Source: Octopus sinensis
Lineage: Eukaryota
Assembly: GCF_006345805.1 (NCBI RefSeq)
Contig: NC_043000.1
Coordinates: forward strand, 145,762,001-145,826,000
Length of the DNA stretch: 64,000 nt
Direction of reading: 5' to 3'
Positions within the stretch are counted from its first letter, which is position 1. Each line of letters begins with the position of its first letter. The notes below the pieces were generated by a model. It ran no database searches. It had not been told where the DNA came from and saw nothing but the letters and a program-made list of their open reading frames with translations. Positions 22,149 to 62,340 of this stretch are shown here, piece by piece. The position numbers and the translations under genes are program-made.

Positions 22149-22313
22149 GGCGCAGGAGACGCTGTATGGTAAGTAGCTTGTTTACCAACCACATGGTTCC
22201 GAGTTCAGTCCAACTGCGTGGCACCTTGGGAAAGTGTCTTCTACTATAGCCTCGGGCCAACCAAAGCCTTGTGAGTGGATTTGGTAGACGGAAACTGAAA
22301 GAAGCCCGTCGTA

Positions 22314-22383
<70 letters not shown>

Positions 22384-22580
22384 TGTGTGTGTTTGTGTGT
22401 CTGTGTTTGTCCCCCTAACATTGCTTGACAACCGATGCCGGTGTATTTATGTCCTTGTTACTTAGCGGTTCGGCAAAAGAGACCGATAGAATAAGTCCCG
22501 GCGTCGATTTGCTCGATTAAAGGCGGTGCTCCAGCATGGCCGCAGTCAAATGACTGAAACAACTAAATGAGAAAGAGAAA
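22149..22580 (+). mobile_element. tRNA-derived SINE, family A
   Basis: ggcgcaggag...ggttccgagttcagtcc head, internal (TA)n/(GT)n, tail ctccagcatggccgcagtcaaatgactgaaac; six copies in the window. Confidence 0.92.
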
Positions 22581-25235: not shown

Positions 25236-25316
25236 AGGAAAAGAATTTTAATTGCCTCTTTCAATTCAGGTTTTTATTTTTCATGTTTATATTCGTATTT
25301 CATTGTTATGTTTATA

Positions 25317-25882
25317 TTGGGTTGTCCGGAAAGGTCGTTCCGATTTTTAAAGGAAAGAAAATGGCCAATAAATACTTGCCATTACATTTTTGATGAACCA
25401 AATCTGAACCATTTCGTTGCACAATACGTCTCCATCTTTCCTTTGCCTTGTAAATACCCGCTTCCCAGAATTGAGGTGGTTTCAAGGCAAATAATTCATC
25501 AAGGTATCTTTTTACGTCATCTAAGGAATTGAAATTTTCATCATTAAGACTATTCTGAAGAGACCTGAATAAGTGGAAATCCGAAGGAGCAATATCTAGG
25601 AAATAGGGAGGGTGGAGTAACACATCCCAGCCGAGCTGCAGCAATTTTTGTCTGGTTCCCAAAGCATCAAGTGCCGAAAATGAACTTTCTCATATTTTAT
25701 TTTAAAGAGTTACAGAATTAACACAGGTTATAGGAACATAAACCTTCTTCCACGAAAAGATAGCTTAAACTGTGCTCTAAATGGAGGTGTAGTCAAATCC
25801 TACTTTATGGACTCAAACATGTTCTAAAATAAGTCGAAAGTTAAGCTACTATAAATCGGCACGAACTTTCCGGACAAACCAG
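25317..25882 (-). mobile_element. Internally deleted mariner element with TIRs and TA TSD
   Basis: TIRs ttgggttgtccggaaaggtcgttccgattt / aaatcggcacgaactttccggacaaaccag flanked by TA; ORF has LGWDVLLHPPYFLDIAPSDFHLFRSLQN. Confidence 0.9.
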
Positions 25883-26749: not shown

Positions 26750-27775
26750 TCTCAGGTCATCCCATAAGTCCTGTCCAAATTTTGGATAAAGAATACAAGT
26801 GATCAAATGTTATATTTAATTCAAAGTTAATCATCAATGTACTTTCCCTGATTATCTATGACTTACTTCCATCTATTTACAAGCTTTTTAATTCCATCAA
26901 TCTAAAACTCTTTTGGATCCAAAGCGAAGAACTCTGAAATGTCAGGTTCAACCTTCTCCTGGCTTGCGAAAGTTATGTCCCCGTAATAATTCTGTAAACT
27001 ATGAAACAAATGGTATCCTGAAGGAGTAAGGTCGGGAGAATAAGTTGGATGAAAAACTTTTTCCAGGCCGACCTCTTCGATCTTCTGTGATGTGATCTTT
27101 GCAGTGTGGGGTTGCGCATTGTCCTGATGAAACATCACTCGTTTTCGACTCACTAAAGCGGCTCTTTTTTCCTTCAAAGCTTGGTTCAAACGCTCTAATT
27201 GCTGACAGTAGACTTGAGCATTGATTGTTGCATTAGGTGGTGACAATGTAAAGTGAATTACGCCTTTGCAATCGCACCAGATAGAGAGAAGAACTTTTTT
27301 CCCATAAAGTTCCCTTCTCGGTTGTGGTTGAGCATTTTCCCTTTTAACAAACCACTGTTTACGACGTTTAATATTTTGATAGAAAATCCATTTTTCGTCA
27401 CATGTCTATCGAAAAAGGATGAAATGAGTTTGCGAGAATGGAGGGAAGAGCAGATGTCAACTCGGGATTTGCGGTTGCTTTCGGACAATACATGAGGCAC
27501 CTATTTTCCAAGTTTAGGAATCTTTCCACGTTGTTGAAGATGACGATGAACTGTCGTATGGTTTGAAGTAAGCTTTAATGCCAATTCTTCAACTGATAAT
27601 GACGGATCTTCTTCAAGGAAGGCCTCAAGGAGCTTATCATCAAACTCAACTGGACGTCCTGTTCGATATTCATCTTCAATTTTGCAAACGATCTCCTGCA
27701 CGTTCTTTCACTCAAGCACTTTCCCATAAACTGAGTAATGTTTCGAGTCACTTCGGCTGCAGAGTTACCTTTATT
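26750..27775 (-). mobile_element. Decayed mariner transposon, 5' end interrupted
   Basis: Frameshifted ORFs with HQDNAQPH, HPTYSPDLTPSGYHLF, RTGRPVEFD and KGNSAAEVTRNI motifs. Confidence 0.9.
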
Positions 27776-27862
27776 AATGAAATTGGTTGTGTAGTTCCCA
27801 AGTTTTAGGGATTCACACAGACAGACAGACACACACACATTCTCAGTTTTATATAGATATAG
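27775..27862 (-). mobile_element. Helitron-like 5' terminus abutting the mariner
   Basis: Matches 22060-22140; the minus strand starts (c)tatatctatataaaactgaga. Confidence 0.5.
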
Positions 27863-28185
27863 GGATATATATATGAATAGCAATTTCTGTCTATCTGTCA
27901 ATTTTACCATCTTGCTGCTGAAACGAGGGAACCAATATTTTTCACCAAACTTTGTATACACGTTGAACTAACATCCATTTCAATTATAAGCTGATTGGAT
28001 TTCAATAAAAATCGATAATGGAACGACTACGGGGTTGCACTATTATATAATAAAATGATACCTGTGCAAAAGTGGTGGTTTCAGGGAAATGTGTCACAAT
28101 GAGGGTGCCTGATATCTGGGAAGGGGAGGAAATACGAACAGATACACACTGTGAATATGAGTGAATATGAGTGACAAGGACACTT

Positions 28186-28307: not shown

Positions 28308-28405
28308 TCGAAAACTTTACCCAAAAATTTTCCGAAAATTTTCACCGAAAATTTTACCCAAAATTTTTCGAAAATTTTGACCTAAAACTTTACCCAAAAA
28401 TTTTC
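28308..28405. repeat. Short outlier of the AAAATTTT satellite
   Basis: Same units as 19348-21440. Confidence 0.9.
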
Positions 28406-29720
28406 CTTCCTTTTGCATTCGAAAACAGATTTGCCGATTCTGACGTATGGAGTATAGAATAAATTTTATTTTATTTTAGATATTTGCATTAAAAAAAAAT
28501 TAACACTACAATGTTTTCTATAAGCCAACTCTCGTAAGCATTTTATACCACGAATATATAACGACGACGACGACGTCACATTTTCTATATGAATGTGTAC
28601 CACAAAACACATCTACGTATCTTCCTTTTGCATTCGAAAACTGATTTGCCGATTTTGACGTATGGAGTATAGAATAAATTTTATTTTCTTTTAGATATTT
28701 GCATTAAAAGAAATTAACTCTATAATCTTTTCTATAAGCCAACTCTCGTAAGCATCTTATACCACGAATATATAACGATGACGATGACGTCACATTTTCT
28801 ATATGAATGTGTACCACAAAACACATCTATTTCTCTACTTCTTATGAGGAAATACAGTCACTTTCACACACACACACATGCACTCTCGCACGCACACATA
28901 TATACAAAAAGCATGTATTATATCTATTTATGTATATGTATATGAAATATGTGCGTGTGTGAGACAGAGAGACCGAATGAAGGCCACTTACACATATGTG
29001 ATAACACATGCATACACTCATTCACTGTATCTCTCCTCTCTCTCTATCTCTCTCTCTCTCGCTCACTATCTCTCTCTCTCTCTCTCTCTCTCTCACGCAC
29101 ATGCACACACACCCGTTTGATATACACTTACATACACCGTTCACTTTCACCTCCGTTTCACTTTCTGCTCTCTCCTCAAAGCAAATGTCACGTTTTCACT
29201 TTCTCTTCTCTTTCAATTTCTGCTTTCTGTAAAGCATATAGAAATTTTAAAAAATTACGGAAATGAACGAATACATTCGAAAATTGCGTTGCCGATTTTG
29301 ACGTATTAGGTATCAAAAGATTCAGTAATTTTTCGGCTAACAAATAAACGTTATTTTTCATTTAAACATTTGCATTACAAATATTTAACATTATAATCTT
29401 TCTATAATTCAACTATCCTAAATGACATTTTACAACACAACAACGACGACGTCTCATTTTCTACATGAGTGTTTACCTTAAAATGCATCCATTTCCCTAT
29501 CTCCATATGTTATGAGGAAATACAGACACTCACTTTCTCTCTCACATGCACACGCACACATACATACAAAAGTATGTATATATACATGTATTTATCTGCA
29601 TGTATGTGAAAGATAATGTGTGCGTGTGTGAGAGAGAGACAGAGAGATTGAATGCCACTTACACATACATGCAAAATATACACACATGACAACACACACC
29701 TTCACTCACTCACTCACTCA

Positions 29721-31265: not shown

Positions 31266-31603
31266 ATATATATGTATGTATGTATATATACTTTATAATT
31301 AGGGTTCAGCAAAAATTTGCTTTACCACATACCGAAGTTTAGAACTAGCAGCCCAAAAACCTTAGCTATTTCTTCTACTTTAAAAAGGGACTCCCAGAAA
31401 AAAACCAAAATACTTGAAACACACACACACACACATACACACACACATATATATATATATATATGCATGTATGTACATTTATTGTATCCTTTTGACATAT
31501 TGTGATAAATGTGTGAGCATATCTATATATATAATGAGGATGATGATGATGATGATGATACCGCGTACACCAAATGGGAATCTCTACATGTCACACCTTC
31601 TGT

Positions 31604-38429: not shown

Positions 38430-38853
38430 GGAGCAGGAGTGGCTGTGTGGTAAGTAGCTTGCTAACCAACCATATGGTTCCGAGCTCAGTCCCACTGCGT
38501 GGCATCTTGGGCAAGTGTCTTCTGCTATAGCCCCGGGCCGACCAATGCCTTGTGAGTGGATTTGGTAGACGGAAACTGAAAGAAGCCTGTCGTATATATG
38601 TATATATGTATATATATATATATGTATGTGTGAGTGTTTGTGTGTCTGTGTTTGTTCCCCTAGCATTGCTTGATAACCGATGCTGGTGTGTTTACGTTCC
38701 CGTCACTTAGCGGATCGGCAAAAAGAGACCGATAGAATAAGTACTGGGCTTACAAAAAAGAATAAGTCCCGGGGTCGAGTTGCTCGACTAAAGGCGGTGC
38801 TCCAGCATGGCCGCAGTCAAATGACTGAAACAAGTAAAGAGTAAAAGAGTAAA
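38430..38853 (+). mobile_element. tRNA-derived SINE, family A
   Basis: Full-length match to the other family A copies; (aaagagt)n tail. Confidence 0.92.
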
Positions 38854-39786: not shown

Positions 39787-40099
39787 TGAATTTTTGGTGT
39801 AGCATAATTATAAATAATTTTCTCATGAGGAAATGCAGAGAATGGCTTCCTTACCGGTTCAAATATTTTCCATGCGTATTTGAACATATAACAAGTTTGT
39901 GTTTAACATCACTGCGTAACGCTTCTGCTCTGCATGTATAAATTAATAGCATACAAATGGCGTCTAAGGTAGCTACAGCTCTTTCGATACTGTTTACGAC
40001 TACACTGAACAGCTATTAGTAATTTGGACGCCATTTTGTGTTACTATACTTACATACGGGCATACATACCTACAAATATACATACATAAAATAAATGAT

Positions 40100-40853
40100 A
40101 AATGCACCCTTTTAAAGTCTAGCCAGGCTCATGAGCCCGGTTTCCCAGGTTTCAATGGCGTATGTGTTCCCCAGCTGGACGGGACGGCAGTCCATCGCAG
40201 CGTTACTCATTTTTGTCAGCTGAGTGAACTGGAGCAACGTCAAATGAAGTGTTTTGCTGAAGAGCACAACGCGTCGCCCGGTCCAGGAATCGAAACCACA
40301 ATCTTACGGTCATGAAGCTGACACCCTCACCACTAAGCCACGCGCCTCCACTAAATGTTCCCTTTTAAAGCCTAGCCAGGCTCATGGACCCGGTTTCCCG
40401 GTTTTAATGGCGTATGTGTTCCCCAGCCGGTCGGGACGCCAGTCCATCGCAGCGTTACTCATTTTTGCCAGCTGAGTGGACTGGAGCAACGTGAAATTAA
40501 GTGTTTTGCTCAAGAATACAATGCGTCGCCCGGTCCAGGAATCGAAACCACAATCTTACGATCATGAAGCTGACACACTAACCACTAAGACACGCGCCTC
40601 CACTAAATGTGCCCTTTTAAAGCCTAGCAAGACTCATGGACCCGGTTTCCCGGTTTTAATGGCGTATGTGTTCCTTGGCTGGACGGGACGCCAGTCCATC
40701 GCAGCGTTACTCGTTTTTGTCAGCTGAGTGGACTGGAGCAACGTGAAATGAAGTGTTTTGCTCAAGAATACAACGCGTCGCCCAGTCCAGGAATCGAAAC
40801 CACAATCTTACGATCACGATACTGACACACTAACCACTAAGCCACGCGCCTCC
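40100..40853 (-). mobile_element. Head-to-tail trimer of a ~250 bp tRNA-derived SINE
   Basis: Units at 40100, 40353 and 40605, each starting (minus strand) ggaggcgcgtggcttagtgg...ggtttcgattcc (A and B boxes). Confidence 0.92.
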
Positions 40854-46600: not shown

Positions 46601-47017
46601 TATACGCACATACACGCATTCATATACATATGATATATATATATGTATATATGATATATATTTATAAATAAAGATAATATCGATATTATCAAGTGGCCAG
46701 TATGGTATGGTATGTACATATATACGCACATACACGCATTCATATACATATGATATATATATATATATATATATGATATATATATTATATATATATATAA
46801 TATATAATATATATATATATTATAATATGTATATGAATGCGTGTATGTGCGTTATATGTACATACCATACCATACTGGCCACTTGATAATATGGTGGAAA
46901 GGGGAGAACAGAGATTCTTCGCTTGCTTATTTTGAATTGTTGGCACTGTTAGTTGGGAGCAGATCTTCGAAAGGGTATGTTCTTATTTTCAGTGTTTCCA
47001 AATCCAAACCAAGGAAT

Positions 47018-47074
47018 TTCCGAGCCGATGATAGAAATGTTGTTTTGACTAATCTTGAAACGTACGTTCTCGAA
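47018..47074 (+). ncRNA. Hammerhead ribozyme motif, array 1 copy 1
   Basis: ttccgag-CCGATGA-taga...tctt-GAAA-cgtacg-TT-ctcgaa; palindromic stem III, GUU site after 47068; stem II weak. Confidence 0.65.
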
Positions 47075-47563
47075 TAACCTTAGCATTTGATTTTTCGATG
47101 TCCTTACCCCCAAACTTTTGTGAGTTGAATTATGCAAACACTATATATGAGAGAGATTTTCTTTAAGTATTAGAAATAGCCTTAAAAAAGTTTTTTAGCT
47201 GCTATTTCTAATGAGTTCAGTATGCGGCAAAGTAATTTATTTTACTAAGCCCTTTTATATAATGTAATAATTTGAATTCGCCTTGAATGGTCCCTTTGCA
47301 TACTGAACACTTGGTGAAATTGATTAATAATTAATTAATTTTGCCCTCAATTGTTGAAATTATAATTAATCTCCCTCTGATTAATACTTCGGATTTTACC
47401 GAAATAAGCATAGAGTTTGATGATTTTAACCCACGCTGGTGGAAAGGGGAGAACAGAGATTCTTCGCTTGCTTATTTTGAATTTGTTGGCACTGTTAGTT
47501 GGGAGCAGATCTTCGAAAGGGTATGTTCTTATTTTCAGTGTTTCCAAATCCAAACCAAGGAAT

Positions 47564-47620
47564 TTCCGAGCCGATGATAGAAAAGTGTTTTTGACTAATC
47601 TTGAAACGTACGTTCTCGAA
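47564..47620 (+). ncRNA. Hammerhead ribozyme motif, array 1 copy 2
   Basis: Same core and stems as copy 1. Confidence 0.65.
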
Positions 47621-48103
47621 TAACCTTAGCATTTGATTTTTCGATGTCCTTACCCCCAAACTTTTGTGAGTTGAATTATGCAAACACTATATATGAGAGA
47701 GATTTTCTTTAAGTATTAGAAATAGCCTTAAAAAAGTTTTTTAGCTGCTATTTCTAATGAGTTCAGTATGCGGCAAAGTAATTTATTTTACTAAGCCCTT
47801 TTATATATGTAATAATTTGAATTCGCCTTGAATGGTCCCTTGCATACTGAACACTTGGTGAAATTGATTAATAATTAATTAATTTGGCCCTCAATTGTTG
47901 AAATTAAATTAATCTCCCTCTGATTAATACTTCGGATTTTACCGAATAAGCATAGAGTTTGATGATTTTAACCCACGCTGGTGGAAAGGGGAGAACAGAG
48001 ATTCTTCGCTTGCTTATTTTGAATTTGTTGGCACTGTTAGTTGGGAGCAGATCTTCGAAAGGGATGTTCTTATTTTCAGTGTTCCAAATCCAAACCAAGG
48101 AAT

Positions 48104-48160
48104 TTCCGAGCCGATGATAGAAATGTTGTTTTGACTAATCTTGAAACGTACGTTCTCGAA
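48104..48160 (+). ncRNA. Hammerhead ribozyme motif, array 1 copy 3
   Basis: Same core and stems as copy 1. Confidence 0.65.
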
Positions 48161-48441
48161 TAACCTTAGCATTTGATTTTTCGATGTCCTTACCCCCAAA
48201 CTTTTGTGAGTTGAATTATGCAAACACTATATATGAGAGAGATTTTCTTTAAGTATTAGAAATAGCCTTAAAAAAGTTTTTTAGCTGCTATTTCTAATGA
48301 GTTCAGTATGCGGCAAAGTATTTATTTTACTAAGCCCTTTTATATAATGTAATAATTTGAATTCGCCTTGAATGGTCCCTTTGCATACTGAACACTTGGT
48401 GAAATTGATTAATAATTAATTAATTTTGCCCTCAATTGTTG

Positions 48442-48503
<62 letters not shown>

Positions 48504-48577
48504 AATAAGGATAATATCGATATTTAAATATTGATATTATCAAGTGCCACATGGTATGGTATATATGATATATATAT

Positions 48578-48619
<42 letters not shown>

Positions 48620-48623
<4 letters not shown>

Positions 48624-49009
48624 TGTGTGGTAAGTAGCTTGCTAACCAACCACATGGTTCTGGGTTCAGTCCCACTGCGTGGCACCTTGGGCAAGTGTCT
48701 TCTGCTATAGCCCCGGGCCGACCAATGCCTTGTGAGTGGATTTGGTAGACGGAAACTGAAAGAAGCCTGTCGTATATATGTATATATATATGTGTGTGTA
48801 TATGTTTGTGTGTGTGTGTTTGTCCCCCTAGCATTGCTTGACAACCGATGCTGGTGTGTTTACGTCCCCGTCACTTAGTGGTTCGGCAAAAGGGACCGAT
48901 AGAATAAGTACTGGGCTTACGAAGAATAAGTCCCGGGGTCGATTTGCTCGACTAAAGGCGGTGCTCCAGCATGGCCGCATTCAAATGACTGAAACAAGTA
49001 AAAGAGTAA
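48620..49009 (+). mobile_element. tRNA-derived SINE, family A
   Basis: Match to family A, missing the first ~10 nt. Confidence 0.92.
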
Positions 49010-49019
49010 TATATATATA

Positions 49020-50379
49020 TAGTCCCTTGCAGGTGCTAGACGCAATTTTACTTCATTCTCTCTCAGTTTTTTGGTTCGAATGCGCTTTATTGTTAATTTT
49101 TGTGCAGCTGATGTTTCACCAAGTGTTCCCCATAGGTTGTTCGATCGAATTTAGTTCGGGACGTTGCGCTGGCCATTCCATGTGAACAATATTCTGTGCC
49201 TCAAACTATTAACTAATATTCTTTGCTGCATGACATGGAGCGTTGTCCTGTTAAAAGATAACACTATTTTTCGACACTCCTGGATGCAATTTAGCAACTG
49301 TTGGCTCTAGAACACCCGATAACATAGAAATATAGGTAACTGAATTCACCCTTCCCTGACATAAAATCCTTCCTCCGGGCCCTGTGGCAGACATGCAGGC
49401 CCACACCATGATAGAACAACCCTCATGTTTTACGGTTGATACTAGACATCATGTCTTAAATACTTCCTCAGCTCTGCGACACACGAAAGTTGCACCAGAT
49501 GTACCGAAAACCTGAGTTAAAGCAAGAAAAATAATATAGCTTTATGCTCGATACTTTTTTTAATATATTTTGGGTAACAAACCAGTTACATTCAGTTTAT
49601 ATGTTGATCGAATACATGTTCTATCATACCTCATAGTTACTATTATCAAACCATATGGCTTTCGACCATTGCTCACTGGTACAATTTGGCCCATTGAAGA
49701 CGTTTTTCCATATTCGCTTCAGAAACCCATGACTTCTTCCTGGTTTTACAGCTTTTCATACCGTAATCTACAAGCCTTCTTCTAACAGTTTTGGTTGATA
49801 TTTGTGAAGTACTTGCCTCGTTGAAATCCGCACAGAGCTCCGACAATGTTTTTCTCCTGTTTCTGAGCGACCGACGGATGATGGACCTATCATCACCGAG
49901 GTGATGTAACCTTTTTTCTACATGTTTTCTGTATCGTCTTCACATCTTATGTCTCTCTGAATCGCTTGAGAGTAGTTTGAACCGCACATCGAGAGCAGTT
50001 CATCTTCTGAGCAATTTGCCATTGAGAAATTCCATCTTCACGATGAGCTACGATTGACCTCGCTAACACTCACTCAACTCCCTTGTTTTAGACATTTTAC
50101 TGTTTATTACCTGTATCTACAACGTATTTAAGCATAAAGCTCTGAAATAATCAAGGAAACAAAAGTTAATTTTGGACGTTGGTCTTACTCGTAATTTGTT
50201 GTATATGTAAAGTACAGTATAAAAGCGTTAATTGATGCGAAAGGAGGGTCAACCAGGTATTAAAACTAATGTACATTGTGAAATATACCATAATCTACCA
50301 TGTGCACGAATTTCATTCATATTGAGATAGAAGAACCCTAAAACATTGGGGTGGCCTTATACTTTTGGCCAAGAGTGTA
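49020..50379 (-). mobile_element. Decayed Tc1-like transposon
   Basis: Minus-strand translation QDNAPCHAAK and EWPAQRPELNSIE (WPAQSPDLNPIE-like); terminus tacactcttggccaaaagtataaggccacc. Confidence 0.8.
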
Positions 50380-50382
50380 TGG

Positions 50383-50427
<45 letters not shown>

Positions 50428-50474
50428 TGTGTGTGTGTGTATGTGTGTGTGCGTGCGTGCGTGTGTATTATATA

Positions 50475-51873
50475 CACAGTGTGTAAGATATTTGAGGACA
50501 GATTTGTTTATAATGAAAACACATATAATAACTGATAATAACGTTATTTATCAAAAACTACTATGGGGATAAAAATAACCCTTCTTTCCTATAATGTTAT
50601 TCAATAAAGCAATCTTCAGCTTCAATAATTGCTTCTATACGAGATCTAAATCATCTACATGCTCGAATCAAGTGGTCCTGGTTCATTTTCGACATTATTA
50701 TGACTGTGTCAGCTTTCAAGGAATCTTTGGTGTTATGGGCAAGTTCATTGACCTCTCTCTCTCTCTCAACAACACTCCACATGTAATAGCCCAATGGACT
50801 GAGATCTGGGCAATTAGGAGGCCAAATGTTAGGGGATATGTGATAATGAAAATTTTCATCATTCTATTCTTGTGTTACTAGTGCCCTGTGTGATAGTGCA
50901 GAGTCTTACTGAAACATATATGGCTTTCCATTGCATACACTGTCTATCCAGGGCTTAACAAATCTTTCCAGGAACTCAATGTAGGTGGCAGAGCTAACTC
51001 TGAGGCCTTGTAAAAGAAAGTAAGAAGGCATCACATGTCCTTCAATGCTAAAACCCCCTAAAACCATGACAGTTGCTTAACAAATCTTTCCAGGAACTCA
51101 ATGTAGGTGGCAGAGCTAACTCTGAGGCCTTGTAAAAGAAAGTAAGAAGGCATCACATGTCCTTCAATGCTAAAACCCCCTAAAACCATGACAGTTGCAG
51201 GAAATGTTGTATGCATAACATGTGGAACTTCAGAACAGTCTGCATATAACCACCTGTCATTTTTTTGTTAACTTTTCGATCTTCGTCGAAGTGTTTCTCG
51301 CTTGAGAAAAAACAAATCAAATCTTGTTCTGTTGGATTTTTCAGTTTGTTTAAGAGCTTTTTAGATCTGATTTTCTTTTCCTTTTTTTCTTTTGATTAAT
51401 GATTTTATTTTGTTTTTTTGTGACATAAATTGCTCATTACTCATCTTATAAGACTTATATCAGATGTCTTCGTGGACAACCTCTCTGACCCTTACTTTTG
51501 ACACATAGTAATTTTTTGCAGTTGACTTAAAGACTTCCAGTTGATTTGTAACCAATGGCCTGTTGAACTTATTAGATAAATTCAGGTGTTCTGAAGATTT
51601 CAGAGCGTTTTTAGGATGCTTTTTTATGCTTTGATAATGGTGATACATTTCCATCTTCAATCATTAACTCCTTACACACTTTGTAGACGAAAGATCTGGC
51701 AACTTTTAAAAATCAAGATATCTCTAAATCAGTATACTCAGCCTTTATAACCACAATAACAACATGCTTCTTCATTTCCTGAATAAGCTGTTATCATTTT
51801 CTGAAACAGAGATAATACAGAGTTAGCAAAACATGCTGCAATAACCAAAAAGAGGTATGTCATATGCACCCTG
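50475..51873 (-). mobile_element. Decayed maT/DD37D-like Tc1-mariner transposon
   Basis: Minus-strand translation VMHTTFPATVMVLG...EGHVMP and NIWPPNCPDLSPLGYYMWSVVE; TA-flanked cagggtg-like ends. Confidence 0.75.
50953..51198. repeat. Exact 122-bp tandem duplication inside the transposon
   Basis: gcttaacaaatctttccagg... at 50953 and 51075. Confidence 0.95.
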
Positions 51874-52565
51874 TATATATGTATGTATGTTTGTGTGTAT
51901 ATATGCATAATATATTTGCCTTTCGATATTATTAATCAAAATAAGATAGAGAGCGGACAGAAACGTTACTGCGTCATAAAAAAAACATGCTTAGCTGCTT
52001 TTCTTCTGTTCTCTACATTTTAAGTTCAAATGCCGGGGTTGTTGACTTTAGATTTCATTCTTTTAAGCTCGATAAATAAGTACTAGTTTCGCACTGGGGT
52101 CGATCTAATCAACTCGCATTTGCCGCACAATTTGCTGACCCATTGCCGAAATTGAAACCGATATTAGCTTGACAGTTGTACAGTTGATACAGCTGAAAAT
52201 GTAGAAGTTTGGATTCATCAAACAATAGAGGCTTCTTTATTTGCCCCTGGTTGTCAGTTTGTTATGAATGGAATTTTAATAATGCAAATCTTTGCATTAC
52301 TTGTCGACTCTGTGTGTGTATGTGAATATGGCTATATATGGTGTTTAATTGTGTTAATGATACAACAATTGATATTGTATACAATCAACAACTTGTATAT
52401 TGAATCAGTATATAACTGATAAACGTGCCTTATTGAAATACGCACTGGTGCCGATATATTCGAAAAATATCTCTTGAACATAGTAGCTTAGCATGACCAA
52501 ATTTTAATGTCTGAAACTCCAAAACTAGTTACATGCCTGATTATGTGCGTATCATCTGCAAAGAT

Positions 52566-52621
<56 letters not shown>

Positions 52622-52622
<1 letters not shown>

Positions 52623-53025
52623 TTTACTCTTTACTCTTTTACTTGTTTCAGTCATTTGACTGCGGCCATGCTGGAGCACCGCCTTTAATCGAGCAACTCG
52701 ACCCCGGGACTTATTCTCTGTAAGCCCAGTACTTATTCTATCGGTCTCTCTTTTGCCGAACCGCTAAGTGACGGGGACATAAACACACCAGCATCGGTTG
52801 TCAAGCAACGCTAGGGGGACAAACACAAACACACAAACACACACACATACACATACATATATACGACGGGCTTCTTTCAGTTTCCGTCTACCAAATCCAC
52901 TCACAAGGCTTTGGTCGGCCCGAGGCTATAGTAGAAGACACTTGCCCAAGGTGCCACGCAGTGGGACTGAACCCGGAACCATGGGGTTGGTAAACAAGCT
53001 ACTTACCACACAGCCACTCCTGCGC
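52622..53025 (-). mobile_element. tRNA-derived SINE, family A
   Basis: Reverse complement of the family A sequence. Confidence 0.92.
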
Positions 53026-53786
53026 TGTATGTTCTTACTTTTATATGAGAGCAGGCGTATGTGCGTATGCATCTATTTTACGTAGATATTTGCTGTTCAG
53101 TAGATTGTCAGTTAACGTCCCATTAAGAGCAATTTGCAGAGAAGTATTTTAAACATCTAGCCATTACCTTATTTCTTTACTAACAAGAAAAATTGTAAAA
53201 ACAATATCGGTTGACTAGTCAATAATCGAATAACATCTAATTGCATATCTTCGAAAAGATATTATCATAATGATGTATTCTGTACCTATTATTTTTTCTT
53301 TAATATTTTAAAGAAGAATGTATGTTAAAAAAAATGAAACATTCAACAAAAGCAATAAGATATATATACGTAAGTGCTGTTAAGAGAGGATTTCAGGAAT
53401 AGAGAGATTAGAGAGAAATGAATTTGTAAAGGATCAAAAATTAATGACGTGAAAATGAGGACACAGAAAGAAAACCGAAAAGTCATATAATCGAGGTAAT
53501 ATGAAGGCGAAAATACACCGGCTGTGGATACGGATCAGAACAAGGTTCGACAAGAGTCCAAAAGTATTTTCAATTGTAAGTCAGAGTGAATTACATGTAT
53601 ATATATATATATATATATTATATATTATATATTATATATATATATATATACATGCATATGTATATATATAAGTATACATATTTATATACATGCTCACATA
53701 AACCCACACACATATTCTTATGTGTATGTGCATGTATATCCATATATTTATATATATACATGTATATATGTATATGCATATGTATT

Positions 53787-53817
<31 letters not shown>

Positions 53818-55389
53818 ATGTATATTTCTATATATACATATCTAATATATATACCTATATAAATATATACATATATATAATATATATATTTGTATATATA
53901 TATATATATATAATATATATATATATATATACATATTTATTATACATACATATATACATATGTACATCATGTGAGAGAGAGAGAGATAGAAAGAGAGTGT
54001 TGGTGCGTACGGATTGGAGAGTGGGAGGCGAAGGAGCAGAGCAGAGTCATAGAGAGGTAATTATCACAATTGTGAGGAAGGCAAAAATTCGGGGAGAGTT
54101 TAAAAAATACTAAGGATCACAAAAGAAGGAAATGATAGGTTACGTGTTCAATGAAAAATTGTTTAAAGTAATACAGCAGATATATTAAAGTTTGACAGGG
54201 AGATATCGAAAAGTACATATTTAGAGTCATAGCAAAATTAGTAAATGCGGAGAGGCCTACCAATTACGATACAGATAATCAATAAATGAATCTATATATT
54301 TGTACTCTTCTTATTTGTTCCATTGTTTCTTTTGCCAATAATTTGTCACAAATTGTTAAGAGCCACTAATCAAGAATATGGAGCGCATTAACAGATATAA
54401 ACATACACAAACCAGTCGATATTGTGCAGTTAATTAAAATCCAAGCCAGTGATACGTTTACTGTTTCTCTTGTTACTAAAGTGGTAGTCATGTTGTTGAT
54501 CATCCTTCAACATGTCTTGTTATTTATTCATAATGTTGTCATGGGTGTAACACTTGCTGAAGCCGATATTGTGTTAATGAGGTTGCATCTATTGGCTGAG
54601 ATGTTGGTGGAAGAGGAGTTTTTCTTTATTTGTTTTATTATGCGTGTTGCATTGTTTCCCTTCTTTCATTAATCATCAGATATTTTCTGAGAAAAATGTA
54701 CGCAAATTTAAAGTGTCCAAACAACGACAATCATGGCAGACACCGACGCCTATTCTCTACGCTGTTACACTTTGATCTTTGATTAAAGCTACTATTGTGT
54801 AAGTGCGTATGTGTGTGAGAGAGGAAGTGAATGTATGTATGAAGTTATTTGTAAATATGTGTATATACATTTAATTGCATATAAATGCTCATATATACAT
54901 ATGTATATATATATATATAGAGAGAGAGAGAGAAAGAGATAGATAGATAGATAGATAGATATCATACATACACATGCACACATACACACAAACATGTATA
55001 CATACATACATATATATATAAATATAGATAGATAGATAGATACAGATATACATATATGTATACTTATATATATATGTATATATATAGAGAGATAGACATA
55101 TATAGATACAGATATACATATATGTATACTTATATATGTGTATATATATATATATATATAATATTAATTTATCTCCCTCAATTTTTAATATTTAAATAAA
55201 TACGTTCCCTAGTAGTAAGCTTTACCCGCAGTGAATTATTCACTGCAGCCCTTCGCTTCAGGAGTCTCTTAGCGCGCCGGAACCAAGACATTTGAAATTT
55301 TATTCCCGATGTAATCAGTAAGACTAAGCACGTGTCTGTCTTGACACAGAGAGCTGGGGTTAGTCTTTCAGTTTGCATCTCGAGGACCG

Positions 55390-55465
55390 AATGTACTGAA
55401 GAAGTCACGGACACTTGAATTATGCAAGTAATTCTTTTGTTAAGACCGAAACCGAGGTATGCATT
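55390..55465 (+). ncRNA. Hammerhead ribozyme motif, array 2 copy 1
   Basis: aatgta-CTGAAGA-agtc...gaattat GCAA gtaattc...gacc-GAAA-ccgagg-TA-tgcatt; 6-bp stem I, extended stem II capped by a GNRA loop, GUA site after 55459. Confidence 0.8.
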
Positions 55466-55928
55466 TAAGTCTGTTTTTATATTAATTTTTCATATGTCTG
55501 CCCGCCAAATTTGGTTCTGGTGTTCGCTGAATTCTTCCTCTAGAGAATTCCGTTGTAGTTGATCGTTGATGATCTATTCTAGCATTCTGGCCGGCTACCT
55601 AGCAGGCCAGCCCTGCCAATATACACATATTTGAATTTTCTCTGACTCCTCAGATTTTTGAATGCTGGACTACTGGTTTTAAATTGATATTAAAATTAAT
55701 ATTAATTTATCTCCCTCAATTTTTAAATATTTAAATAAATACGTTCCCTAGTAGTAGGCTTTACCCGCAGTGAATTATTCACTGCAGCCCTTCGCTTCAG
55801 GAGTCTCTTAGCGCGCCGGAACCAAGACATTTGAAATTTTATTCCCGATGTAATCAGTAAGACCAAGCACGTGTCTGTCTTGACACAGAGAGCTGGGGTT
55901 AGTCTTGCGGTTTGCATCTCGAGGACCG

Positions 55929-56004
55929 AATGTACTGAAGAAGTCACGGACAATTGAATTATGCAAGTAATTCTTTTGTTAAGACCGAAACCGAGGTATG
56001 CATT
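55929..56004 (+). ncRNA. Hammerhead ribozyme motif, array 2 copy 2
   Basis: Same core and stems as copy 1. Confidence 0.8.
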
Positions 56005-56444
56005 TAAGTCTGTCTTTTATTTAATTTTTCATATGTCCTGCCCGCCAAATTTGGTTCTGGTGTTCGCTGAATTTGATCGTTGATGATCTATTTCTAGCAT
56101 TCTGGCCGGCTACCTAGCAGGCCAGCCCTGCCAATATACACATATATTTGAATTTTCTCTGACTCCTCAGATTTTTTGAATGCTGGACTACTGGTTTTAA
56201 TTGATATTAAAATTAATATTAATTTATCTCCTCAATTTTTAAATATTTAAATAAATACGTTCCCTAGTAGTAAGCTTTACCCGCAGTGAATTATTCACTG
56301 CAGCCCTTCGCTTCAGGAGTCTCTTAGCGCGCCGGAACCAAGACATTTGAAATTTTATTCCCGATGTAATCAGTAAGACCAAGCACGTGTCTGTCTTGAC
56401 ACAGAGAGCTGGGGTTAGTCTTGCGGTTTGCATCTCGAGGACCG

Positions 56445-56520
56445 AATGTACTGAAGAAGTCACGGACAATTGAATTATGCAAGTAATTCTTTTGTTAAGA
56501 CCGAAACCGAGGTATGCATT
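56445..56520 (+). ncRNA. Hammerhead ribozyme motif, array 2 copy 3
   Basis: Same core and stems as copy 1. Confidence 0.8.
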
Positions 56521-56851
56521 TAAGTCTGTCTTTTATTTAATTTTTCATATGTCCTGCCGCCAAATTGGTTCTGGTGTTCGCTGAATTGATCGTTGATGAT
56601 CTATTTCTAGCATTCTGGCCGGCTACCTAGCAGGCCAGCCCTGCCAATATACACATATATTTGAATTTTCTCTGACTCCTCAGATTTTTTGAATGCTGGA
56701 CTACTGGTTTTAAATTGATATTAAAATTAATATTAATTTATCTCCCTCAATTTTTTTTTTATATATATATATATATATAATTATCTTCGTGTGCATATAT
56801 GTGTGTCGGTGTTTGTGTGTGTGTGAGTGTCTGTGTGTATGTGTGTGTGTA

Positions 56852-57120
56852 TTGTACCAAACTTTGGCACTGAGACGCCACTGCAGACTGCCAAGAATCC
56901 CTGTATCTCCATCAAAATACAGGATCAGATACTGCAACAGCTTGGGTTTCAAGCGCCTCCAGTTATTCAATATCCTTCCAAAATACCTGCGGGACCTGCA
57001 TGGTGTGGATCTAGGTGTCTTCAAATCAAAACTCGTTCTCTTCCTGTCAAGGATTCCAGATGAGCCTGCCTCATGGGAGAAAACCAGATGAGGGTGGCGG
57101 CATCTTTAATCATTTGTCTT
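56852..57120 (+). mobile_element. CR1-group LINE 3' end fragment
   Basis: NSLGFKRLQLFNILPKYLRDLHGVDLGVFKSKLVLFLSRIPDEP matches the LFNxLP...FKxxLDxFL..IPDEP C-terminus of CR1/L2-group ORF2. Confidence 0.75.
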
Positions 57121-57134
57121 CCTATGCCCATATA

Positions 57135-57943
57135 TATATGTATATATATATATATATATATCTACATATATATAAGTACAAGAACACCATTCTCAGAATA
57201 AAACAAATAATGCAAAATAATGCAAAGAAATTAACAACAAGAAAAGATAAAAACAATTACTCAAAAGACAAAACCAAGGGAGAAAGACATCCAAAAGACG
57301 CCAGTCAAGAGTAAAGTCCCTTGATTCATTGATTCATTGAATTCATTATTAATGCGAATTTACTAGAAATCCCGCAAACGAAGACAGAATGTTTTCTAAA
57401 AAATAGAGGCGAACATCTTTCTCCATATTATCAACTTGAAAAATGTTTGAGACACTAGAATATTTTCCTACTTTTCTCAACATGAAACTAATGGCCGCCT
57501 TAATTTACAGATACAGAAGTTATATATCCATTTACTTATATATATATATATATATTATATATATATATATCTACATATATATAAGTACAAGAACACCATT
57601 CTCAGAATAAAACAAATAATGCAAAATAATGCAAAGAAATTAACAACAAGAAAAGATAAAAACAATTACTCAAAAGACAAAACCAAGGGAGAAAGACATC
57701 CAAAAGACGCCAGTCAAGAGTAAAGTCCCTTGATTCATTGATTCATTGAATTCATTATTAATGCGAATTTACTAGAAATCCCGCAAACGAAGACAGAATG
57801 TTTTCTAAAAAATAGAGGCGAACATCTTTCTCCATATTATCAACTTGAAAAATGTTTGAGACACTAGAATATTTTCCTACTTTTCTCAACATGAAACTAA
57901 TGGCCGCCTTAATTTACAGATACAGAAGTTATATATCCATTTA

Positions 57944-57975
<32 letters not shown>
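57135..57975. repeat. Apparently identical 409-bp tandem duplication with (TA)n junctions
   Basis: agaacaccattctcag at 57181 and 57590; no differences noticed by eye. Confidence 0.92.
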
Positions 57976-57985
<10 letters not shown>

Positions 57986-58159
57986 TATATATATAATTTA
58001 GAGGAATGACCACTAATAGTGGAAAGCCTGTATGCTAGAAAAAGATGTCAAATTCGCCATTTGCCACGAAGAATGTGTTCTCAAGAAAAATTTCAGGAAA
58101 AACCAAAGTGTAAAAATAAGCAAGACAAATGAAAATATACGAAATAAAAAAACGATTAC

Positions 58160-58234
58160 CCATGTAATAATTAGTTTCACTTGTTAATATTTACGTATAT
58201 GGATACACAAACATCTGCAAGATCGTCAGCATAG
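58160..58234 (-). ncRNA. Hammerhead ribozyme motif, array 3
   Basis: Minus strand: ctatg-CTGACGA-tcttg...caagt-GAAA-ctaattat-TA-catgg; copy 2 has gtaattag-TA-catag, giving consensus palindrome CTAATTAG and a GUA site; long G-U-rich stem II. Confidence 0.75.
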
Positions 58235-58730
58235 TCTGTCGTTTAAGAAATAAAATTTCTAGAACTAGATACAGGGCGCTCGACCGAAATCCAGCATGTA
58301 TAAAGCTCCACAAATTATATTTATGTGTATCTTTCAAATGCCTTCACTTTAGCGCACTAAGATCGGAAATTACTCTGCAGTTAATAAACTACAGCAGTTA
58401 ATTTACCGGCTAGAGAACATTTTTTATTTAAAATTAAATAAGGGTAGAAATTGCTATTAATCAATTAAAACCAGTGGCCTAGCATATTTTAAAAAAATCT
58501 GAAGATTACAAATTTTTCTACATACAAAATTTAGAGAAATGACCACTAATAGTGGACAGCCTGTATGCTAGAAATAGATGGCAAATTCGCCATTTACCAC
58601 GAAGAATGTGTTCTCAAGAAAAAATTCAGCAAAAAGCCAAAGTGTAAAAATAAGCAAGAAAAATGAAAATATATGAAATAAAAAAACCATTACCTATGTA
58701 CTAATTACTTTCACTTGTTAATATTTACGT

Positions 58731-59110
58731 GGAGGCGCAATGGCCCAGTGGTTAGGGCAGCGGACTCGCGGTCGTAGGATCGCGGTTTCGATTCCCAGAC
58801 CGGGCGTTGTGAGTGTTTATTGAGCGAAAACACCTAAAGCTCCACGAGGCTCCGGCAGAGATGGTGGTGATTCCTGCTGTACTATTTCACCACAACTTTC
58901 CCTCACTCTTACTTCCTCTTTCTGTTGTACCTGTATTTCAAAGGGCCGGCCTTGTCACTCTCTGTGTCACGCTGAATATCCCCGAGAACTGCGTTAAGGG
59001 TACACGTGTCTGTGGAGTGCTCAGCCACTTACACGTTAATTTCACGAGCAGGCTGTTCCGTTGATCGGATCAACCAGAACCCTCGTCGTCGTAACCGACG
59101 GAGTGTTTCC
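58731..59110 (+). mobile_element. Full-length tRNA-derived SINE with an 11-bp TSD
   Basis: A box tggcccagtgg, B box ggtttcgattcc; TSD aatatttacgt at 58720-58730 and 59111-59121. Confidence 0.93.
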
Positions 59111-59304
59111 AATATTTACGTATATGGATACGTAAATATTGACGTCTATTTCTAGTATACAGGCTTTCCACTATTAGTGGTCATTCCTCTAAATTTTGTA
59201 TGTATAAAACTTTTTAATCTTCGGATTTTTTAAAATATGCTAGGCCACTGGTTTTAATTGACTAATATCAATTTCTGGCCTTATGTAATTTTATATATAT
59301 ATAT

Positions 59305-59342
<38 letters not shown>

Positions 59343-60398
59343 TGTATATATATTGTATATTATATATATATATTAAAAGGTTTGGATATGAAGTACAGAT
59401 AATATATATTAGAAAAAAATAGGGGATTCAGAAATCTGGATGGTTGTACATATACAAATATCTATTAACATGTCAGTTTGTTATATTTCGCCGCTTTGAT
59501 GCTGTATTTAACTCCCGAACCGCTGTCCCGATTCAAAGGAAAATATAATCCCGATAGGTATAAGCCTGTAAGCTGTAATCCTCCGGTAATATCTATGAAC
59601 AGTGTTTATATAAATCTGCTCACTGCAATAAATTATTCTTTCTAGGGCCCTAGCAAATGAGGTTAAAATGAATTGTTCTATAATTCTAAGATATACAATA
59701 AAATGTTGACGGATTCGGCACAGTTTTGCTACTGTGGTGTCCAAACCACCGTAATTATTTTCAGTATTGCTATGGAAAATATTATTGCTGCATATTCTGT
59801 GTCACTTGTGACTGAAGAGACTCATTCACAATGTCATACCAAATATGATTTTCAATTTAATTTTTTTCTGGCCACACATATCAAGGATTAAAAAAGAATT
59901 TTCTTTCTAATTTCGGTAAGCTTTTGTATACTTTCAGCGTAATTTAACTGCAAATTTTGACAAGTCAAAAGGCTATATAAAGTACGTGATGTCTCACTAT
60001 TTGGCACTAGTTGAACCAGAAAGAAGGAACATGTATTGGCTTAGTTCTACGTATCCAAAATCATAAGATATATCGCAATAACATTATTCTTAAATTTAAA
60101 CTCAGATTCTCACATGTTTCTCCGTATGTATCACCGCTGCTTTATATAGTTGGCAGTAGATATGAACGTCAGCTACACCGAGATAAACAGTATATTTCAA
60201 ACAATGCTTCCGGTTATTGCACTTAACATTTCAAACAACGGCCTGCTGCATCCGAAACAGCCTACGGTTAAAAGATCACCAACCAATAAAGACAATAGAC
60301 TACGCCAAGTAATGTTGTTACTATCATTATTTTCAATTCTATATTTAAGAGATGAGTAATTATGTACATTAATTTCATTATTTACAATGTTTGTTGTT

Positions 60399-60444
60399 AA
60401 CACAACGTTTCGGCTGATATACTCTGCAGCCTTCATCAGGTGTC
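60399..60444 (-). ncRNA. Minimal type I hammerhead ribozyme
   Basis: Minus strand: gacac-CTGATGA-a-ggctg cagagtatat cagcc-GAAA-cg-TT-gtgtt. Confidence 0.8.
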
Positions 60445-60523
60445 TTGGGGAAATTCCGAACCTGGGTTCTCATTCCTAAGGTATTTTTCGATGTTGTTGT
60501 TGTTGGTATTATTATTATTATTA

Positions 60524-60559
<36 letters not shown>

Positions 60560-60569
60560 GATAATGATG

Positions 60570-60659
<90 letters not shown>

Positions 60660-60727
60660 TTACCAACAACAATAACAACATCGAAAAATACCTTAGGAAT
60701 GAGAACTCAGGCTCGAAATTTCCCCAA

Positions 60728-60773
60728 GACACCTGATGAAGGCTGCAGGGTATATCAGCCGAAACGTTGTGTT
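60728..60773 (+). ncRNA. Minimal type I hammerhead ribozyme
   Basis: gacac-CTGATGA-a-ggctg cagggtatat cagcc-GAAA-cg-TT-gtgtt; stem III is the loopless palindrome AACGTT; GUU site after 60768. Confidence 0.8.
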
Positions 60774-62340
60774 AACAACAAGCAAGGCGAGGACAAATAC
60801 CCGTCAATTGTAAATAATGTAAATAATGTGTCTTTATTTTTGCAATAATTTGTGATGTCATATTTATCTCCGAAATTATATTATAACATTTCATGTTGTT
60901 CTTTATATTCTCAATTCAAGATTTCATACTAATCATCTTTGTCAATCTTCATATTTATCTTCATAATAGTTACAATTAATTTGATTAGTAATAAGATTAT
61001 TGACTGTGATGATCTTTATTGTACATCCTGTTGCCAACATTAACAAAAGCAGAAGCATCACAGTCGCATTCATGATCATGGCCACCACCACCAACACCCA
61101 AATCATCATCATAGCAGTCATGATTGTTGACAACATTCACCATCGACATATTAACGCTGTCGTTAAAGCTGAAAATGACAATGATATATTTATTTGCGAT
61201 CGGCGTTATAGTCGTGGACACTTGATTCAATATCATTAATATCGTCGTCTCTTTTTTCAACTTTCATAATTTCATTATATCTTCATCATCACCCTGTCAC
61301 GATATTCACCTGTGTTTGGTGTGTGCTCGCGCGCGTGTGTATGTGTGTGGGAGTGTATTTTGAAATAGAATAAAAGTTAATCATTTTCTAATGAGTATGT
61401 CACATAAATTGATTCGATACAAGATTAAATCGAGCAAACAACCAGAACCTGAATTTCTAAATTCTGATTTCTATTCCTGTTCCCAGTGTGATGGACTGGT
61501 AAAAAAATGCCCGTTTATAACTACCTTCTTTTATGCTGGTATTTAAAATTAGACCGAGGCAAATTGCATTTCGTCAATCCGAGGATCGATAATTTGAAGT
61601 AGTAATCTATTCTTGATGCCGATATAACCCGCCATGATCTAGAAAAAAAAAAATGCTATTGTTATTATTTTGGAGGAGAAAGAAAAGATTAAGGATCGGT
61701 AAGGAATCCATTGTGGTACTGGATCTGATTTTTACATTCTGACTTCAAATTCCACTGAGGTTCACATCAATCTTCATCTTTTTAACGGTTCGTCATAAGA
61801 GGACGATAGAATAATTACCAGTCTTAAAAAAATATATATACTGGGGTTGAGTTTTTCAACCAAAATATTTTCTCGATGTGGTGCTGCACCATGACCACAT
61901 TCTATTGACCGAAATAATTAGAAGATAAAAGATCATAAAATGGAGACACAAAAAAATTAGCGGCTGAAGTGTGTTGAGGGGCGGTTTAACCCCCAATTGA
62001 GGGGCGGTTTAACTAAACCCATCTTCTCAAAATATCTAAATTAAGCACATGTATATGAAAAGGGTGATAAATTAGTAAGATCCTTTGAGCATCGGAAATA
62101 ATATTTACTACCTTTGCTGTGACTCTTTACGAGTTGAGATCAAATTGCACGAAGTTTAGATTCCGTCTTCGTCTTCTCGGATCAAGAAAATAAAATAAAA
62201 AAGCAATTCAACTAATGGGCTCGCCGGAATCGATTATCTCCCTCCGCTCAAACTTTTTGTACTTCACCCTAAATCAGAGACAATTATTGAACTATTACTA
62301 TATTGAATTATTACTATCAATAATATTAGTAAATGGCTTC

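Follow-up and report, generated by a model that had tools for sequence, protein, structure and literature searches.

The 64,000-nucleotide stretch of Octopus sinensis DNA analysed here (the window) is microsatellite-rich animal DNA with ~33% G+C. It contains a tandem array, array A, whose units start at 46892, 47437 and 47979 and are 545, 542 and ~470 nt long, and unit identity ceases at 48449 (Table 1). In BLAST comparisons, the unit 47069-47614 is 98.2% identical to the next unit over 546 nt, 99.7% identical to the last part of the array over 296 nt, and 97.8% identical to the first part over 178 nt. The initial annotation described about 2.9 near-identical head-to-tail units, which agrees with the 2.86 units, 97.8-99.7% alike, that we measured. 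Most differences between the units are insertions or deletions of a single letter within runs and could be errors of assembly. The tandem layout itself is not an artefact of assembly, because head-to-tail joints are present in contigs of all four sequencing runs examined. The first two copies read A at 47386, where 96-100% of the pool depth reads G. Such rare letters common to the units show that they derive from one source monomer, and do not show how that monomer was multiplied.

Array A is non-coding by the frames tested, and its G+C content of 33% is below 50%. The array holds 13 stop-to-stop frames of at least 40 aa, the longest being 92 aa. No frame of at least 120 aa overlaps it, so there is no RT or GIY-YIG ORF at the array. 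A Pfam scan of four of the 13 short frames gave nothing at the cut-off; two weak matches in one minus-strand frame fell below it and were dropped.

The flanks of array A are rearranged. On the 5' side, 46826-46892 repeats 46683-46750 in inverted orientation (67 of 68 columns). The left flank at 46845-46884 is uncovered in all four runs, so this junction is seen in the assembly alone. The likeness between the right and left flanks is possibly a long, imperfect target duplication. A SINE-like repeat, presumably an octopus SINE, follows the TA run to the right of array A (48620-49005), and two more copies lie at 38440-38746 and 22159-22501.

Two further families of hammerhead-bearing repeats were found in the window. 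The hammerheads of family B are canonical, with the core CUGAAGA, a longer stem II and a stem-loop II of 45 nt, and the start of array B carries a 27-nt repeat of its own end. Family C was located through a module that it shares with array B. Its stem III is near-palindromic (10 nt), it contains an inserted repeat at ~58733-59110 flanked by an 11-nt duplication, and its inverted piece 59139-59290 (plus strand) ends in the module beside a TA run. We note that a 13-nt word is common to A and B; it lies inside loop II in B and ~60 nt past the cut site in A.

Table 1 Array A, its parts and flanks, and related or neighbouring repeats in the window
Feature	Position	Strand	Evidence or remark
Tandem, 214 bp	28406-28829
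Older relative (71%) of the two-stem region of array A	31289-31386	-	ends near unit position 47255, within a TA-rich repeat
Tandem, 252 bp	40099-40853
Flanking DNA forming an imperfect palindrome around a central TA run	46683-46892	.	93.9% over 213 columns; abuts the array 5' end
Tandem array A, 2.86 units of ~545 nt	46892-48449	+	33% G+C; BLAST, unit alignment
Type I hammerhead motif, copy 1	47018-47074	+	sequence, pattern and folding
Copy 1, stem I	47018-47024 pairing with 47069-47074	+	sequence
Copy 1, core C3 C4 G5 A6 U7 G8 A9	47025-47031	+	sequence
Core position 4	47026	+	C in all three copies of array A; T/C polymorphic across runs
Copy 1, stem II, opened by a U.U mismatch	47033-47035/47053-47055 plus 47039-47041/47047-47049	+	sequence
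Copy 1, GAAA	47057-47060	+	predicted cut after 47068 (GUU)
Palindromic stem III, 8 nt	47060-47067	+	folding
Two stable stems downstream of the ribozyme	47169-47308 (47169-47180/47201-47212; 47215-47225/47298-47308)	+	predicted fold
3'-end module, copy 1, with AT-rich hairpin 47311-47327/47331-47347	47295-47369	+	61 of 82 columns alike with array B
Hammerhead motif, copy 2	47564-47620	+	predicted cut after 47614
Hammerhead motif, copy 3	48104-48160	+	predicted cut after 48154
3'-end module, copy 3, at the array end	48380-48449	+	last four letters (TATA) overlap the TA run
(TA)n run, putative insertion target	48446-48498	.
Right flank, like left flank 46659-46724	48496-48574	+	direct orientation, 14-nt insertion
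Tandem, 122 bp	50953-51198
Sister family B, 3 units of 516-539 nt plus ~27 nt	55160-56752	+	between TA runs; ends in the shared module
Tandem, 409 bp	57130-57993
Third family C, ~528-nt unit	57995-59290	-	CUGACGA hammerhead, predicted cut after 58165

Hammerhead motifs and core polymorphism

Each motif of array A consists of stem I, CCGAUGA, a stem-loop II of 25 nt, GAAA, an 8-nt palindrome and GUU, so that three stems and a GAAA/NUH core are present in type I topology. Copy 2 has three altered letters, in the outer part of stem II and in the loop. The canonical CUGANGA core is missing, as all three copies carry the change U4C, and stem II is without the usual G10.1-C11.1 pair. These motifs, with their CCGAUGA core and palindromic stem III, stand in all three copies as the initial annotation had written them; the cuts that it predicted after 47068, 47614 and 48154 hold by position, with spacings of 546 and 540 nt, and both hairpins that it named occur in the predicted fold as the two stems of Table 1. 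Among 20000 dinucleotide-shuffled units, 11 fit the descriptor with a palindromic stem III and 93 fit it without the palindrome. Across the window, a second descriptor found nine motifs in four families, against a mean of 0.05 (maximum 1) in 100 shuffled windows. The hammerhead-like motif of array A is therefore far beyond chance, by descriptors that were both composed after the motifs had been seen. At the gathering score, Rfam returned no hammerhead in the whole window and likewise missed the canonical motifs at 55396, 58229 and 60733; with E up to 10, none of its 63 matches in 46800-61000 was a hammerhead. Since Rfam is blind to these nearby canonical motifs, its miss on array A is uninformative.

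Folding calculations suggest that a single copy would rarely adopt the hammerhead structure. The monomer hammerhead fold has an energy of +0.6 kcal/mol, whereas pairing of GAAAC with loop II gives a misfold at -8.8 kcal/mol. The stem III palindrome is predicted at -9.8 kcal/mol as a duplex of two copies and at +2.4 kcal/mol as a hairpin in one copy. Across the full-array ensemble, stem III forms between adjacent copies with p of 0.32-0.42 and within one copy with p of at most 0.01, consistent with the earlier proposal that the palindromic stem III depends on a dimer. Stem I has p of 0.06-0.31 and stem II p of 0.00-0.23; the weakness of stem II had been noticed before, and other genomic copies strengthen it. 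Both strands of the unit fold more stably than shuffled sequence (z -3 to -5), so folding gives no mark of the RNA strand.

The literature leads us to expect slow cleavage. PLE-type hammerheads are reported to cut poorly, dimers included (PMC4209133; PMC6765202), and of the predicted Xenopus dimers eight of nine were uncleaved and one was cut (10.64898/2026.07.22.740005). U4C lowers hammerhead activity in vitro, where cutting is much slower; a natural U4C viroid variant stays infectious, and the U10.1.U11.1 mismatch is found in natural hammerhead motifs (PMC3088659). The initial annotation had stated that such motifs cleave efficiently as dimers, and this does not agree with these reports. For the hammerhead of array A, only a dimer form is plausible by modelling, and it would be slow.

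It is worth noting that the word ATGCAAA, then TATATA, lies at 47130-47148, ~60-80 nt past the predicted cut site of array A; we assume that these resemble octamer and TATA promoter words.

Among the 24 runs listed, 16 carry at least half of the unit's words (8 studies, 7 organism labels), four carry next to none, and four with shares of 0.23-0.33 were left out of both groups. One run with the family, X1, may be the source sample. No run carrying the family is on record as RNA. Four runs were compared on 46845-47436, with 9758 contigs in X1, 2409 in X2, 1587 in X7 and 46 in X11. X2 is guessed to be DNA and X11 to be RNA, and X1 and X7, which have no recorded kind, are presumed to be DNA. Contig depth is flat per contig and is not a copy number, and no site stood out as the start or end of many molecules, which is normal for contigs. 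Array A is a member of a very abundant, dispersed multicopy family with subfamilies. Two X7 contigs belong to a divergent subfamily whose core is CUGACGA and whose stem II opens with an A-U pair. A related tandem unit, ~560 nt long, is further indicated by a 630-nt contig in X1 and X2; it has only 47191-47325 in common with array A.

The core itself is polymorphic in this family. The canonical T at 47026 makes up 37%, 53% and 35% of the summed contig depth in X1, X2 and X7, carried by 35, 21 and 8 contigs, respectively, and by none in X11. The C4 form accounts for ~47-65% of the depth in the same three runs, which is an upper estimate, as contig placement favours the reference. U4 and U4C are both common as core alleles in this family. 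Either direction of change is compatible with the data: variation between C and T at 3 of 13 CpG sites is compatible with C to T at core position 4, and the presence of U4 in the divergent subfamily and in families B and C is compatible with U to C.

Other variation bears on the neighbouring stems. At 47041, T>C occurs at 22, 28, 14 and 27% of the depth in X1, X2, X7 and X11; it turns a U.G into a C-G pair, and stem II is thereby strengthened in those copies. By inspection, two loop changes in the family would break the misfold of GAAAC with loop II. Among the places listed, motif variation lies at 47021, at 47026 and in stem-loop II, with no two-sided stem change; for X1 this holds for 30 of 36 places, and C>T, A>G or T>C core changes could lie among the other 6. 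G>A was found at 8, 7 and 7 places in X1, X2 and X7, none of them within the hammerhead motif at the 5% level. Together with the strengthened stem II, this is a tentative sign that the hammerhead is under constraint in the family.

X11 has 23 A>G and 27 T>C places, compared with 4 and 5-6 in the other three runs, and its C>T and G>A are unchanged. This excess weakly hints that double-stranded RNA from the two strands of the repeat undergoes A-to-I editing; the run has only 46 contigs and is guessed to be RNA, and divergent copies could contribute. If it is editing, it would hint, again weakly, at read-through transcription rather than unit-length RNA.

A 3'-end module shared between families

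Array A ends 295 nt past its last predicted cut, just beyond a 17-bp AT-rich hairpin. Array B, which we take to be the array 2 of the initial annotation, ends in the same module, 236 nt past its own predicted cut. The two arrays had been described as having little shared sequence, and this needs correction: a ~75-nt 3'-end module, 74% alike, is common to both. Its local alignment score is 47, compared with 22.7 +/- 2.6 in shuffles, and none of 1000 shuffles reaches 47. Families B and C share ~140 nt, with a local score of 64 compared with 25.0 +/- 3.0 and again no shuffle of 1000 reaching it. No direct likeness was found between A and C, where the score of 24 was reached by 636 of 1000 shuffles. 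A whole-unit alignment of A and B with looser gap costs gave a weak score that 15 of 500 shuffles reached.

Five element ends were examined in the window. All five run into TA-rich repeats, and three lie within ~20 nt after a CCCT-type motif of the module. The two outside the module are that of the minus-strand array of family C and that of the old copy at 31.3 kb.

The contigs of the wider family were also inspected at 47365, the equivalent of the end of array A. Contig depth falls there by 5.3, 2.1, 3.9 and 7.9-fold in X1, X2, X7 and X11, which is the largest drop in three of the four runs, and depth peaks in the preceding 160 nt. A peak followed by a fall at this point is expected of 5'-truncated copies with a fixed 3' end. 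The drop is confounded, as the listed variant places number 9.7 per 100 nt just after it compared with 3.8; smaller drops (1.7-2.8-fold) occur at 47085 as well. Among the 24 of 254 rows listed, no loose end lies at 47365. We regard these depth data as only a hint of a family-wide fixed 3' end. X11 has a loose end at 47253, near the point at which the older relative at 31289-31386 ends, and ~47253-47255 may be a second preferred 3' end.

Proposed mechanism and rival explanations

We propose, with a probability of roughly 0.6, that array A is a non-autonomous, non-coding, non-LTR retrozyme-type element mobilised in trans by a Penelope-like element (PLE). As part of this model, the end of the insertion was probably set at the hairpin module and not at the ribozyme. 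The weakened core, the shared 3' module, the variable 5' end and the (TA)n target together give an anatomy that fits PLE-type insertion. PLEs are described as forming partial tandems, inverted 5' pieces and short terminal extensions, with some clades preferring (TA)n (PMC8557442). In the window, family C shows such an inverted piece and array B such an extension. A purified PLE protein nicks AT-rich DNA and initiates RT internally on its RNA template, at a stem-loop that follows the hammerhead; its start site is not homologous to the target and lies ~90 nt after the cut, and insertion is equally good with a dead ribozyme (PMC11167929). PLEs have been named as candidate mobilisers of retrozymes (PMC7229834), and a PLE origin of retrozymes has already been proposed, with the mechanism still to be worked out (10.64898/2026.07.22.740005). 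Naiads are reported as long inactive in cephalopods (PMC8557442), and a 2026 repeat annotation of Octopus vulgaris lists 31 recently active Penelope-like families (PMC13282606).

The proposed steps are as follows. Plus-strand RNA spanning several units would be made, for which the X11 pattern is one weak hint. By computation, adjacent hammerheads can form only together, as a dimer joined by the palindromic stem III. Given C4 and the weakness of stem II, cutting would be slow, so that much of the RNA would stay multimeric and some of it might form 545-nt circles. A PLE RT-endonuclease would then bind the AT-rich hairpin module of families A, B and C and nick (TA)n DNA. The cDNA would begin inside the RNA, 10-20 nt beyond the hairpin, at the TATA that matches the target and could prime there. 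RT would run back through ~2.9 units of a multimer or a circle, between which we consider the chances about even, and stop at a variable point. Finally, a template switch would join the flank and leave the 68-nt inverted flank copy seen at the 5' side. The ribozyme in this model is slow, dimer-dependent and probably dispensable. If cleavage does not set the insertion ends, this would explain the high copy number of the U4C lineage.

Array A could instead be a classical circular-RNA retrozyme, in which dimers cut efficiently despite C4, 546-nt monomers are circularised by tRNA ligase, and the circles are the obligatory template for rolling-circle RT. The pool-rare letters shared by the units (A at 47386) are as expected from one monomer template, although copying of a homogeneous source array would also give homogeneous units. 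The circular monomer folds well (z -5.1, 25 shuffles), and retrozymes of mussel, coral and axolotl yield abundant circles (PMC7229834). The viroid with U4C and the natural U10.1.U11.1 mismatch (PMC3088659) suggest that such a ribozyme could suffice. However, stems I and II form with low probability even when the full array is folded, U4C is less active in vitro (PMC3088659), and most Xenopus dimers tried stayed uncut (10.64898/2026.07.22.740005). We therefore consider this explanation unlikely.

A second alternative is that array A is a decayed relic: a PLE pseudo-LTR-like monomer inserted, lost its ribozyme through U4C and expanded into a tandem at the DNA level, so that C4 marks a dead satellite. 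The core is off consensus and the monomer misfolds, as this explanation expects; local duplications are present in the flanks, and the formation of tandems from a PLE end at the DNA level has been proposed (10.64898/2026.07.22.740005). However, C4 is not private to array A, as it makes up ~47-65% of the depth (an upper estimate) in three runs with three organism labels. An origin of the T at 47026 by random CpG decay in dead copies was rejected, since the partner G of the same CpG is unvarying at the 5% level. Tandem joints are common in the family, and the ends of three families beside (TA)n lie at homologous positions. These observations make a decayed relic very unlikely.

Terminal hairpins and TA-rich targets are not unique to PLEs, and no autonomous PLE with the module was found in the sequences covered here, so the AT-rich hairpin might be recognised by an enzyme of another kind, from a LINE (for example RTE) or a DNA-based rolling-circle system, with the hammerhead as a passenger. 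This is highly improbable, given that the unit has no poly(A) or simple-repeat tail and that partial tandems, 5' inversions and type I hammerheads whose stem III is palindromic are all as in PLEs (PMC8557442; PMC6765202; PMC4209133).

Known systems and other elements of the window

The initial annotation had called array A a second retrozyme-like family, and this is supported by its consecutive units with one type I motif each, its non-coding nature and its dispersal. Retrozymes are recognised by at least two consecutive units that each carry a type I motif, and array A has three motifs in 2.86 units, with a U4C core. Like the metazoan non-LTR retrozymes, it is non-coding, arranged head to tail with one type I hammerhead per unit, low in G+C and well folded, with few units per array (PMC7229834; 10.64898/2026.07.22.740005). 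Its 545 nt fall within the 51-972 bp range of retrozymes (10.64898/2026.07.22.740005) and exceed the 170-400 nt RNAs of the retrozymes described in 2020 (PMC7229834). Unlike them, array A is known from sequence alone and has a U4C core, as does about half or more of its family. A fixed 3' end at a hairpin common to several families is not among the retrozyme features given in the relevant passages of these two sources (PMC7229834; 10.64898/2026.07.22.740005). On sequence grounds, we favour placing array A within the known class of retrozymes, as a variant that departs from the canonical core, over treating it as a new class.

Array A also resembles the PLE pseudo-LTRs (PMC4209133; PMC8557442; PAc of Anolis, PMC11167929) in its short palindromic stem III that needs a dimer, its insertion end, which lies at an internal stem-loop past the ribozyme, its AT-rich or (TA)n target and its partial tandem, and family C adds an inverted 5' piece. 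It differs from them in having no RT or GIY-YIG frame, a distance from cut to end of 295 nt compared with ~90 nt in PAc (PMC11167929), a 4-nt target match at the end, and no G10.1-C11.1 pair in stem II. The viroid U4C hammerhead cited in PMC3088659 has the same core change and is described as sufficient in vivo though much slower in vitro; array A, unlike the viroid, belongs to an animal genomic repeat that is present in high copy number and has canonical sister copies, and its activity is a prediction. Non-autonomous Chlamys PLEs such as MRC1 are likewise non-coding and multicopy in head-to-tail arrangement, with microsatellite targets and 3'-end likeness to their partners, but they are green-algal and most are described as having no canonical hammerheads (PMC8557442).

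The literature titles and abstract openings listed describe no cephalopod retrozyme, genomic CCGAUGA family or shared RT-start module; repeat libraries lie outside this scope, and a prior description is possible. The main text of the Octopus vulgaris repeat annotation has no occurrence of 'ribozyme' or 'retrozyme' (PMC13282606). Pattern scans of metagenome and viral contig collections gave no matches.

Tentatively, we suggest a wider reading, which the balance of the evidence does not yet favour. A set of retrozyme families with units of ~520-560 nt, divergent almost throughout including their ribozymes, might keep the AT-rich hairpin module as a cis signal for PLE RT into (TA)n, and one U4C family of this set might have been amplified across several species. 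If true, the spread of retrozymes would hinge on the RT-start element rather than on circles or efficient cleavage; the U4 and C4 sister subfamilies would be a direct in-genome test of the purpose of the hammerhead. The locus offers a candidate recognition or start element, conserved between families and located at insertion ends, and its abundant family supplies two natural core alleles. Both bear on which enzyme moves animal retrozymes, what is recognised, and whether the ribozyme is needed.

Several other repeats lie in the window. An inverted pair of minimal PLE-type hammerheads, with the core CUGAUGA and a 4-nt palindromic stem III, is located at 60404-60447 (minus strand) and 60725-60775 (plus strand), around a (TAT)n/(ATA)n run, and looks like two PLE ends back to back. 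The four other tandems in Table 1 were tried as relatives and set aside; they contain no hammerhead by the descriptor and have no real likeness to A, B or C. The 409-bp tandem adjoins family C across a TA run. A minisatellite of 12-13 nt at 19358-21440 and 28309-28406 has plus-strand open frames of up to 471 aa, which are probably a by-product of the repeat. Minus-strand frames were found at 25312-25689, 26902-27405 and 27575-27967, which look like mariner-type transposase pieces, and a charged minus-strand frame of 252 aa at 23219-23977 resembles a LINE ORF1 piece.
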